DNA from: an uncultured virus (IMG/VR IMGVR_UViG_3300005534_000002)
Lineage: Duplodnaviria > Heunggongvirae > Uroviricota > Caudoviricetes
Virus record (IMG/VR): IMGVR_UViG_3300005534_000002
Length of the DNA: 20,000 nt
Strand: one strand, 5' to 3'
The translations under genes were made by a program, and so were the position numbers. The number at the start of each line of letters is the position of its first letter. The first letter of the stretch is position 1. Of this stretch, positions 2,288 through 4,778 are shown piece by piece. The notes below the pieces were generated by a model. It did not search any database and had not been told where the DNA came from. It worked only from the letters and a program-made list of their open reading frames with translations.

Positions 2288-2509
2288 ATGGAAGCTGACA
2301 AGCCCATCGAAGTCGAGATTCGGCTACGGGAAAGAGCCACAGAAACAATGGCGAGCAGAGTCGCGGCGATCCTCCAGCACGACGTTGACGTCGAGTGCGT
2401 CCCGGCGTGCGGTCTGGCGATGCGTGCCTTGTTCGCTCTGTCCAAGGGTAACTTCCTGCAAGCGCGGCAACTACTCGAACGCGCAGAAAGAGAGCGAAAC
2501 AATGCCTGA
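2288..2509 (+). CDS. hypothetical protein
   Basis: Starts 2 nt after the previous stop and overlaps the next start. Confidence 0.7.
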   Translation: MEADKPIEVEIRLRERATETMASRVAAILQHDVDVECVPACGLAMRALFALSKGNFLQARQLLERAERERNNA

Positions 2510-3152
2510 GTTGATCTTCATTCAAGACGGAACCGGATCACTCACCGTCGAAGGTATGAGCGAAGCGGACTTCATGGCACTGGCGGCTGACCTGTTGCCG
2601 ACGCCGACCGAAGTGAACTGCGGTATCCCGCGCCGCAAGCTCGTGCCCGCACCGAGCGTCGGCAGTCTACGTGTCCACGCGATCTGGCATGGCAGTGTCG
2701 TGGAGGGTCCGGGCGTCCGCTCGGTGTTGCAAGTACAGGGTTGCCCCATCCGCTGCGCAGGGTGCTACGTGCCCGAAACGCACGCTGCGGGCACGGGCGT
2801 TACCATGTCCAGTGTCGATGCCGTCGCGTCCCTCTTGGACCCGTTTTTGAAGCGTGATGGCGTGACTGTTCTCGGTGGCGAGCCACTCGCTCAGGCGGAC
2901 GCGCTGCTGCCGGTTCTTGAATCGCTCGTGGCGTGGGGGGTCCATACGGTGCTGTACACCGGCTACACGATCGAGCGCATCGCGAAACACGGAACACCCG
3001 CACAGAAACGGTGCCTGCTACTAGCCGACATGGTCATCGACGGACCATACGTGAAAGCGTTGTCTGATGGCGCTGGCGAATGGCGCGGCAGCCGGAACCA
3101 GCGGGTCCTGAGCAAGACCGAGGTCCGGTCCCTGATGGGAGGAGCGTCGTGA
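2502..3152 (+). CDS. NrdG-like radical SAM (glycyl-radical activase family) protein with N-terminal extension
   Basis: GPGVR...QGCPIRCAGC (CxxxCxxC), GVTVLGGEP, YTGY, DMVIDGPY and WRGSRNQRV are NrdG-type motifs. ATG 2502 overlaps the upstream gene. Confidence 0.88.
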   Translation: MPELIFIQDGTGSLTVEGMSEADFMALAADLLPTPTEVNCGIPRRKLVPAPSVGSLRVHAIWHGSVVEGPGVRSVLQVQGCPIRCAGCYVPETHAAGTGVTMSSVDAVASLLDPFLKRDGVTVLGGEPLAQADALLPVLESLVAWGVHTVLYTGYTIERIAKHGTPAQKRCLLLADMVIDGPYVKALSDGAGEWRGSRNQRVLSKTEVRSLMGGAS

Positions 3153-3418: not shown

Positions 3419-3692
3419 CAATCTGAAGGGGCGCGCCCTCAAGTTACCTGACTCGCGGGTCGGACGCATCGTGAACGCTTACGAAAAAGGACACCGGCTG
3501 GCGCTCGTCCTGGACATGAACCACGACTGCGCTGCCGTGTGGGCGGCTGACCGAACCAAGGGTGGTGGCATGGCGCAATTCAAAACGGAGCTATGTCGCC
3601 ACGATAACCCTCTGTGGTGGGGCGTGACTGGATGCGGTCAGCACACGCACTGTATGGGCTGTGGCGGCATAGTAGACCCGGAGAACATGTAA
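3411..3692 (+). CDS. hypothetical protein with C-terminal Zn-ribbon-like motif
   Basis: GGAGG SD; CRH...C...HCMGCGG near the C-terminus. Confidence 0.65.
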   Translation: MNNNLKGRALKLPDSRVGRIVNAYEKGHRLALVLDMNHDCAAVWAADRTKGGGMAQFKTELCRHDNPLWWGVTGCGQHTHCMGCGGIVDPENM

Positions 3693-4147
3693 TGAGAGAG
3701 GGTAGACTGCAACCCGAGAACGATCAAGAGTGCTCGATCGTGGACTACCTGCGGGTCATCGCGGACGGTATGCCGAACGCTCATCCCGACTTCCGGGCGC
3801 TGCTCGACAAGGGTCGGTTCTGGACACCGCAGCCGCTCCCGCGAGAGTACGAACTAGCTACGCCGAAACAGTGCTTCAAGAACGCGGGACAACTCAGCCT
3901 GGTCCACACAGAGCTTCGCTACTGCGAGGGCTACGCTCTCGGCTTTGTCATCCCGGTCCATCATGCGTGGCTCGTTGACGAGAGCGGCATGGTGATTGAC
4001 CCGACCTGGAGGATCAAGCCGCGCGGTCGCAAGAATGTTCATGATCCAGCCGACCTGGGCTACTTCGGGATCGTCTACGAGCAGGGACGGTTCTGGGAGA
4101 TAATCCGGCAACGGGGTCGTTGGGGCACACTCTTCGCATGGGGGTAG
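3692..4147 (+). CDS. transglutaminase/papain-like fold protein (putative Cys-His-Asp triad)
   Basis: TAATG coupling; motifs KQCFKNA, YCEGYA, HAWLVD, VIDPTW. Confidence 0.65.
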   Translation: MREGRLQPENDQECSIVDYLRVIADGMPNAHPDFRALLDKGRFWTPQPLPREYELATPKQCFKNAGQLSLVHTELRYCEGYALGFVIPVHHAWLVDESGMVIDPTWRIKPRGRKNVHDPADLGYFGIVYEQGRFWEIIRQRGRWGTLFAWG

Positions 4148-4161
4148 AAAGGGGCAGAAAC

Positions 4162-4428
4162 ATGGATGACCGATACTCACGTCCCGTAAAGATTTTCTGA
4201 GCAGTCGTCGTGCGGTACGGTCGTACCCTCGAAGACGGCTTCCTGCCTGTGTTCAGCGTGAACACCGAGGAAGAGGCGAAGCGACTGCTAGTGCTTGCCT
4301 GCCCCATCAACCTGGAGGGCGAGTATGTCGCGGCAGAGTTGGTCCACGAGCAGACCTTCGAGAACCTACAGGCGTTCAGCGACAGACTCGCATCAATCTG
4401 GCAAATGCTCAACAAGGACAAGCAATGA
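4162..4428 (+). CDS. 88-aa hypothetical protein with in-frame TGA at codon 13 (candidate selenoprotein or nonsense-mutated gene)
   Basis: Purine-rich SD (GAAAGGGG) precedes ATG 4162. MDDRYSRPVKIF-TGA(4198-4200)-AVVVRYGR... continues in frame to 4428, which couples to the next gene by ATGA. No SD precedes the alternative GTG 4210. Confidence 0.65.
4201..4240 (+). promoter_or_regulatory. bacterial SECIS-like stem-loop directly 3' of the in-frame TGA
   Basis: Lower stem AGTCGTC (4203-4209)/GACGGCT (4234-4240), upper stem GGTAC (4214-4218)/GTACC (4223-4227), apical loop GGTC (4219-4222), 18 nt after the TGA. Confidence 0.4.
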
Positions 4429-4778
4429 ACACCACGGAAACCAATCAAGCCAACCCGTACGCCGGCCTGGTTGAGCCACTGTACGCTCTCCAGGAGGAAC
4501 TGATTGACCAAGCTGACTACTTCGACATCGAGGCAGGTCGCTTACTCGGTGACGCGGGAGCCATAGACAGAAACGGGATCAAGGACGTGAACATGAAAAC
4601 ACGATTCATCCGCCTGCGTGAACAGGCAGACTACCTGCGCTACCACGCCCAGATCATCGAGAGCGCAGCCAAGATATGCGCTGGGCGCGGATCAGCAGCA
4701 GAACTGACACCCGCGCCGTTTGTCCTGCCAACCGGATGGACGGCGCTCCCATACTCATTCATGGAGTCGTGGGCATGA
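4425..4778 (+). CDS. hypothetical protein
   Basis: AAGGA SD; ATGA coupling at both ends. Confidence 0.75.
   Translation: MNTTETNQANPYAGLVEPLYALQEELIDQADYFDIEAGRLLGDAGAIDRNGIKDVNMKTRFIRLREQADYLRYHAQIIESAAKICAGRGSAAELTPAPFVLPTGWTALPYSFMESWA

Follow-up and report, generated by a model that had tools for sequence, protein, structure and literature searches.

An in-frame TGA and a conserved SECIS-like hairpin in a phage gene family: a candidate bacteriophage selenoprotein

The locus and its reading frame

The window analysed here is a stretch of 20,000 nucleotides (GC 59.5%) from an uncultured virus of the Caudoviricetes (IMG/VR record IMGVR_UViG_3300005534_000002), and it represents a phage replication and nucleotide-metabolism region with genes for a DnaB-like helicase, an SSB, an Erf-like protein, Dam, a resolvase, an NrdG-like radical-SAM protein, a metallophosphoesterase and NT5C. 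The NrdG-like ORF (2385-3152, + strand), a radical-SAM activase by its matches (Fer4_12, 4e-27; PHROG anaerobic ribonucleotide reductase small subunit), belongs to the same gene string, some 1 kb 5' of the candidate gene; the window shows no class III reductase. The gene under study occupies positions 4162 to 4428, and its features are as follows.

4149-4154, + strand: Shine-Dalgarno-like AAGGGG, 7 nt upstream of the ATG at 4162
4162, + strand: start codon ATG, the first of 12 codons before the TGA
4162-4197, + strand: the 12 codons ahead of the TGA (MDDRYSRPVKIF), belonging to the proposed selenoprotein, with their last residues in the predicted strand beta-1
4198-4200, + strand: in-frame TGA, the proposed selenocysteine codon (residue 13), with TGA in 67 of 67 distinct family sequences and Cys in 7 of 18 sense-codon homologs
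4201-4425, + strand: remaining 75 codons (AVVVRYGRT...KDKQ), including the near-invariant Cys47 (4300-4302)
4204-4236, + strand: SECIS-like hairpin, with an interrupted lower stem (4204-4212/4228-4236) and an upper stem of 5 bp (4214-4218/4223-4227)
4210-4212, + strand: GTG taken as start by a table-11 gene caller, giving a truncated 72-aa ORF; inside the hairpin, 10 nt past the TGA
4219-4222, + strand: apical loop GGUC, nt 22-25 counted from the U of the UGA (G23, U24), 18 nt past the TGA
4426-4428, + strand: true stop TGA, overlapping the ATG at 4425-4427 of the next ORF (4425-4778)

The original prediction had described an ATG at 4162, a TGA at 4198-4200, a frame open to 4428 and a hairpin with a GGUC loop, and all of these are present in the sequence; the coupling to the next gene that it had also proposed corresponds to the overlap between the terminal TGA and the ATG at 4425. 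After the first TGA the frame stays open for 75 codons more, up to the TGA at 4426-4428, and translation under table 11 yields just a 72-codon ORF from the GTG at 4210. A start at another ATG of the same frame, at 4138, would overlap the upstream ORF, which ends in TAG at 4145-4147, and would lengthen the protein by eight residues; the ATG at 4162 is favoured because of its better Shine-Dalgarno sequence and because the family usually has 11-18 codons before the TGA. The opposite strand carries a TTG-started ORF of 165 codons over the whole gene (4014-4511, - strand), which is probably not a gene, since the pattern of third-position variation among relatives fits the + frame.

A second, independent assembly from the same sample as the window is identical over positions 4000-4500 at a depth of about 21, which rules out an assembly slip at the TGA. 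The sequencing runs listed as containing the sequence comprise one DNA run, which is probably the source, and no RNA run. TGA is an ordinary stop codon in this phage, since it ends 20 of the 39 window ORFs (including four of the eight Pfam-matched ORFs whose stop codons were checked) as well as the candidate gene itself. Thus, the earlier statement that TGA is not recoded genome-wide, as it would be under tables 4 or 25, holds for this phage.

Conservation of the TGA and of the hairpin among relatives

A protein search returned 21 homologs, all of them gene-called from just past the TGA column. At the DNA level, 79 loci were compared, drawn from 19 viral contigs, one genome contig, 58 metagenome contigs, the viral locus L106 and the window; some of them are the same contig in two collections, and the set contains 67 distinct segments of 123 nt. 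The family is carried by uncultivated phages of soil, sediment and groundwater, and DNA and protein searches of 50,697 phage records gave no match to the gene. Its neighbours differ between loci: out of 12 window ORFs, only that at 3614-4147 was matched, in three loci and, since the neighbouring genes are not conserved, the context gives no indication of function.

The TGA, its flanking peptide and the hairpin occur in 78 of the 79 family loci, the window included. The stop codon at this column is TGA in all 67 distinct sequences and TAA or TAG in none, and the terminal stops of the same 67 ORFs are TGA (46), TAG (8) and TAA (8), the other five being cut off by a contig end. Inspection of codon 13 in homologs, which had been proposed as a check, thus finds the TGA retained throughout the 67 distinct sequences, together with a conserved and covarying hairpin. 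Before the TGA there is a conserved [R/G]P[I/V]KI[F/Y] motif that varies mainly at third codon positions, and after it a conserved A-V-x-V-R-[Y/F]-G. Moreover, nearly all 67 relatives have an in-frame ATG or GTG 10-30 codons upstream of the TGA, mostly with a Shine-Dalgarno-like motif.

The sole family locus without a stop at this column has CGA instead (L017:2940-3060); its unrelated upstream sequence resembles the 3' part of some other gene that is read in another frame, and the locus keeps the hairpin (CTTCC-GGTC-GGAAG). In two further loci (L070:1215-1574 and L072:523-726), about 45-60 conserved residues are followed by unrelated sequence, and these are probably frameshifted or decaying copies.

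More distant homologs were reached by a profile search against 1.84 billion representatives, which gave 315 matches, and 18 of the best 150 are continuous through the TGA column. In these 18 sense-codon homologs the column holds Cys in seven, His in three, Trp in three, Thr in two, and Leu, Ala and Gly in one each, the Cys forms showing unambiguous motifs such as KIF-C-AV. Cys at codon 13, which had been named beforehand as a supporting finding, is the commonest residue (7/18), and 11 of the 18 have another one. A commonest partner residue of Cys is the classical signature of a selenoprotein, and the 11 non-Cys forms indicate that residue 13 is dispensable in some lineages. Two of the three Trp forms are on contigs of about 1.4 kb and may be TGA codons read under table 4 by the gene caller. 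The His forms (P0029, P0033, P0091) make up a subclade in which U-A is replaced by H plus an insertion of about 15 residues (GGGYGSAKSTPDHWRE-like), and in a quick tree of 76 sequences, which is largely unresolved, this subclade is nested among TGA forms near that of the window (SH-aLRT 98). Scans of viral contigs with single sense-codon proteins (Cys and Thr forms) returned TGA forms only, or nothing, and a degenerate DNA pattern with TGB at the Sec column had no matches.

Within the window, the hairpin by itself is weak evidence that lies within chance, and the comparison with relatives is decisive. Folding of 66 nt gives -24.6 kcal/mol (z -1.9), and 7 of 200 shuffled sequences fold equally well. 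A loose bacterial SECIS geometry fits 407 of the 634 TGA triplets in the window, 115 of them with an energy as good as that of the candidate, while a strict version (at least 5 bp, spacing 18-19, GGU/GU loop) is passed by seven of the 634. The pattern TGA-N18-GGTC was seen seven times in the window against 3.2 expected.

The bacterial SECIS consensus (of the bSECISearch type), as quoted in a 2026 review of prokaryotic selenoproteomes, has a loop of 3-9 nt with a G in its first two positions, an upper stem of 4-16 bp, a spacing of 16-37 nt and a minimum free energy of -7.5 kcal/mol or below (PMC13188914). The window and 66 of the 67 relatives have this geometry, which as a model is loose, given the proportion of window TGAs that also pass; in 47 of the 66 relatives passing, the best hairpin stands at the same 18-nt spacing. 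The 42 nt past the UGA fold at -16.8 kcal/mol in the window and at -7.5 kcal/mol or below in all 67 sequences, a comparison in which the limits of the published element may differ, and the window's upper stem alone contributes -4.9 kcal/mol.

Across a 66-sequence alignment, 76.8% of the cells of a 6-pair helix are paired, and in four of the six helix pairs both partners have changed in a compensatory way. Covariation scores 0.353, compared with 0.160 in shuffled alignments (0 of 500 as high) and with at most 0.143 for helices slid by one to three columns. A hairpin, defined as at least 5 bp closing a loop of 4-5 nt that starts at nt 22, occurs in 55 of the 67 relatives and in only 324 of 6700 (4.8%) synonymous recodings of the same peptides. 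Codon choice follows the same lines: the codon of the loop residue Gly20 (nt 22-24) is GGT in 56 of 67 sequences, compared with 14 of 66 for the next conserved Gly, and the Tyr/Phe codon just before Gly20 nearly always ends in C. Swaps in the helix track amino-acid changes (RYGRT, RFGRS, RFGPK), and this coupling implies that the RNA constrains the protein. Several divergent members (L066 and L067 among them) keep a hairpin with a GGUC loop that has moved 5 nt downstream. Moreover, a search for TGA, hairpin and open frames on both strands of 422,322 bases of retrieved loci found 62 instances, all of them family members.

Taken together with the recoding comparison, these alignments show that the hairpin is under selection as RNA, beyond the coding constraint, and the SECIS-like hairpin that had been predicted directly past the TGA is thus conserved and covarying among relatives. 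RNAalifold gave no consensus pairs on the 66-sequence alignment, probably owing to a subclass in which the 3' arm is shifted by one base. An Rfam scan of positions 4100-4500 (E <= 10) returned one irrelevant weak match and no SECIS family.

Decoding of the TGA

Several observations bear on whether ribosomes pass the TGA. In the codons at +1, +2 and +4 (GCN, GTN, GTN), positions 1-2 do not vary at all (entropy zero) and position 3 reaches 1.6-1.9 bits. Codons -5 to -2 behave in the same way, and this third-position variation on both sides implies that ribosomes read the two flanks of the TGA in a single frame. No ATG, GTG or TTG occurs in the first seven codons past the TGA in 20 of the 67 relatives, and in some the first start codon comes only 15-43 codons past it, well within conserved sequence. 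An AlphaFold2 model, computed from a 58-sequence alignment with Cys substituted for the TGA residue, reached a pLDDT of 93.3 and a pTM of 0.82, and in it residues 9-14 form an integral beta-strand (mean pLDDT of 96 for residues 11-20). It is very likely, then, that the UGA is recoded.

The reading that we regard as probable is that 4162-4428 is one gene encoding an 88-residue selenoprotein of an apparently new family, which would be made by means of the host SelB machinery. Ribosomes would start at the ATG at 4162, and the hairpin past the UGA at 4198-4200, with its apical GGUC at nt 22-25, would act as a bacterial-type SECIS. This putative element would recruit the host SelB-GTP-Sec-tRNA(Sec) complex, selenocysteine would be inserted as residue 13, and translation would go on to the TGA at 4426; in cells lacking SelB, tRNA(Sec) or selenium, only a peptide of 12 residues would result. 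An 88-aa selenoprotein of an unknown family was what the original prediction had put forward, and the conserved TGA, the covarying hairpin, the Cys homologs and the AlphaFold strand all lend it support; each computational check suggested with it that was run agreed with it.

The components for such decoding would have to come from the host, since no Sec machinery was found in the virus records. There are no tRNA genes in the window, and five large virus records of a fragmentary nature (G003-G007) contain no tRNA-Sec, suppressor tRNA, selA, selB or selD; in G001, where selB only was looked for, there is none. A virus record of 152.9 kb that carries a family member (L095/L101; G004:C1:147873-152928) has at least 13 tRNA genes, including Ser (three), Leu (three), Tyr, Ile, Arg, Lys and Gln, and no TCA anticodon occurs in this cluster. 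One family locus (L020) is found in a metagenome-assembled genome titled Xanthobacteraceae (MAG G002), on a contig of 67.8 kb that appears wholly phage-like (36 of its 74 ORFs were scanned, with matches to Mu F, baseplate J, a methylase and DUF5131), and its binning is weak evidence for a host. Neither a selB above the cut-off nor a tRNA-Sec was found in this MAG, and selB is present in 30 of 81 sampled genomes of Xanthobacteraceae. The DnaB-like helicase was tried as a pointer to the host and set aside, its best identities of about 31-34% being to phages of many hosts and thus uninformative.

Programmed read-through of the UGA without selenocysteine comes closest to the selenoprotein reading, and we consider it rather unlikely. 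A near-cognate tRNA (e.g., tRNA-Trp, Cys or Arg) or a suppressor would decode the codon, and the hairpin would boost read-through independently of SelB or slow release factor 2, setting a fixed ratio of the 12-residue peptide to the full-length protein. All the evidence for translation through the TGA fits this explanation equally well, and the Trp at the column in three homologs, the tolerance of several residues there and the lack of detected Sec machinery in MAG G002 are in its favour. However, it leaves unexplained why GGUC stands at nt 22-25 as in fdhF and why its U is held by a synonymous GGT codon. Moreover, the commonest sense residue is Cys (7/18) and not Trp, two of the three Trp forms are the possible table-4 calls on contigs of about 1.4 kb, and the surroundings of the tRNA matches in the virus records yielded no suppressor tRNA.

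A quite improbable alternative divides the locus into two cistrons, in which a conserved leader of 12 codons would end at the TGA and a protein of 72 residues would be reinitiated at the GTG at 4210, the hairpin masking this start as long as the leader has not been translated. It agrees with the gene callers, which place the start past the TGA, with the position of the GTG inside the stem and 10 nt beyond the stop, and with a start codon within seven codons past the TGA in 47 of the 67 relatives. Nevertheless, leader translation followed by reinitiation is disfavoured by the other 20 relatives, which have no such start, by the stretch between the TGA and any start, where the amino acids (A-V-x-V) are conserved and third codon positions vary freely, by the 18 homologs continuous through the column among the best 150 of 315 matches, and by the AlphaFold model, in which the last residues of the supposed leader form a core strand at a pLDDT of 96; it also gives no reason for the exclusive use of TGA. 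Finally, an artefact (a nonsense mutation, a sequencing error or phage-wide use of TGA as a sense codon) has a negligible probability, and only the stop codon as such speaks for it; the TGA recurs in 67 distinct sequences drawn from many assemblies, the second assembly is identical, and TGA ends 20 of the 39 window ORFs, including four of the eight Pfam-matched ORFs checked; the first two of these causes, which had been kept as a real alternative when the gene was proposed, are excluded by the conservation.

The protein family and comparison with known systems

Residues U13, A14, V15, V17, G20, G26, L28, V30, A39 and L42 are invariant in the family, and C47 is nearly so. None of 58 members matched Pfam, no match was found in PHROGs or among PDB sequences, Foldseek gave none at E <= 0.001, and VIA-align reached a best Z of 4.2, with no convincing fold match. 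A large subset of the family has a CxC motif (CRC, CDC, CEC, CSC, CTC) within the C-terminal 10-20 codons (L003, L008, L010, L014, L045, L049, L061, L067, L069 and L074/L075, among others), which is absent from the window's protein. In these members, the C-terminal CxC together with Sec13 and Cys47 would provide four potential metal or redox ligands. The product may be a small redox or metal-binding protein, possibly acting through Sec13 and Cys47; no other part of the case is as weak as this one.

A more far-reaching reading, which we put forward tentatively and hold to be possible though doubtful, would make this a widespread phage selenoprotein family with a new fold, in which Sec13 and Cys47 (joined in a subfamily by the C-terminal CxC) make up a redox or metal centre and protein output is gated by the selenium or SelB status of the host. 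The gating is suggested by the position of the Sec codon, 13 codons into an early gene. If it were true, infection would read out, and depend on, the Sec machinery of the host.

The selenoprotein reading itself, if true, would mean that phages exploit the Sec machinery of their hosts, and that standard gene callers systematically shorten this family: the first 21 homologs, without exception, and most of the best 150 of the 315 profile matches start past the TGA. It would also provide a small fold, so far undescribed, in which Sec lies close to the N-terminus, as well as a compact natural SECIS that has the loop and spacing of the E. coli fdhF element and should thus be directly testable in E. 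coli. Moreover, the gene could mark phages whose host uses selenocysteine.

The mechanism is of a known kind, and what appears to be new is the protein family, set apart by the Pfam, PHROG and PDB comparisons, together with its phage setting. Selenocysteine use is on record for bacteria, archaea and eukaryotes, and also for a small number of eukaryotic viruses. A full-text literature search, which worked mostly at the level of abstracts, found no report of a bacteriophage selenoprotein, and neither the main text of the 2026 review of prokaryotic selenoproteomes (PMC13188914) nor that of the BSepDB paper, which covers 111 families (PMC13326102), contains the word phage, virus or viral.

The closest known counterpart of the phage element is that of fdhF in E. 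coli K-12, where codon 140 is a TGA followed by GGUC at nt 22-25, counted from the U of the UGA. Set side by side, the loops are the same in letters and in positions, and the likeness to fdhF that had been pointed out before is thereby confirmed; furthermore, both are coding-region hairpins directly past the UGA, with a stem reaching towards it. The conserved bases are U17, G23 and U24, with U17 and G23 as SelB contacts, according to PMC8659212. In a minimal SECIS of the fdhF type, G23 and U24 stand in the apical loop of a stem-loop at about nt 15-31. The phage family retains G23 and U24. The bulged U17 of fdhF is not conserved in it, and nt 17 of the window is a paired G; in its minimum free energy fold C16 is unpaired, and most relatives have instead a continuous helix of 7 bp. 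Formate dehydrogenase genes with one in-frame TGA (L111 and L113, from two Xanthobacteraceae genomes) have a bulged U17, with G23 and U24 in the loop. In addition, the phage protein is unrelated to that of fdhF, the upper stem is longer, Sec would lie 13 residues from the N-terminus, and the gene is phage-borne.

Among viruses, selenoproteins include the glutathione peroxidase homologs of the molluscum contagiosum and fowlpox viruses of eukaryotes. Like the gene proposed here, these are virus-borne and rely on the Sec machinery of the host. However, they have a SECIS of the eukaryotic 3'-UTR type and belong to a known enzyme family, whereas the phage gene has a SECIS-like hairpin of the bacterial kind inside its ORF and no convincing match in Pfam, PHROGs or the PDB. 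Among phages, the A1 protein of Q-beta is a low-frequency extension of the coat protein, made by reading a leaky UGA as Trp, and is thus likewise a phage protein obtained through UGA read-through. To our knowledge, this read-through involves no SECIS-like hairpin. In contrast to A1, the family described here has its conserved domain after the UGA and, directly behind that codon, a hairpin with a loop of the SelB type.
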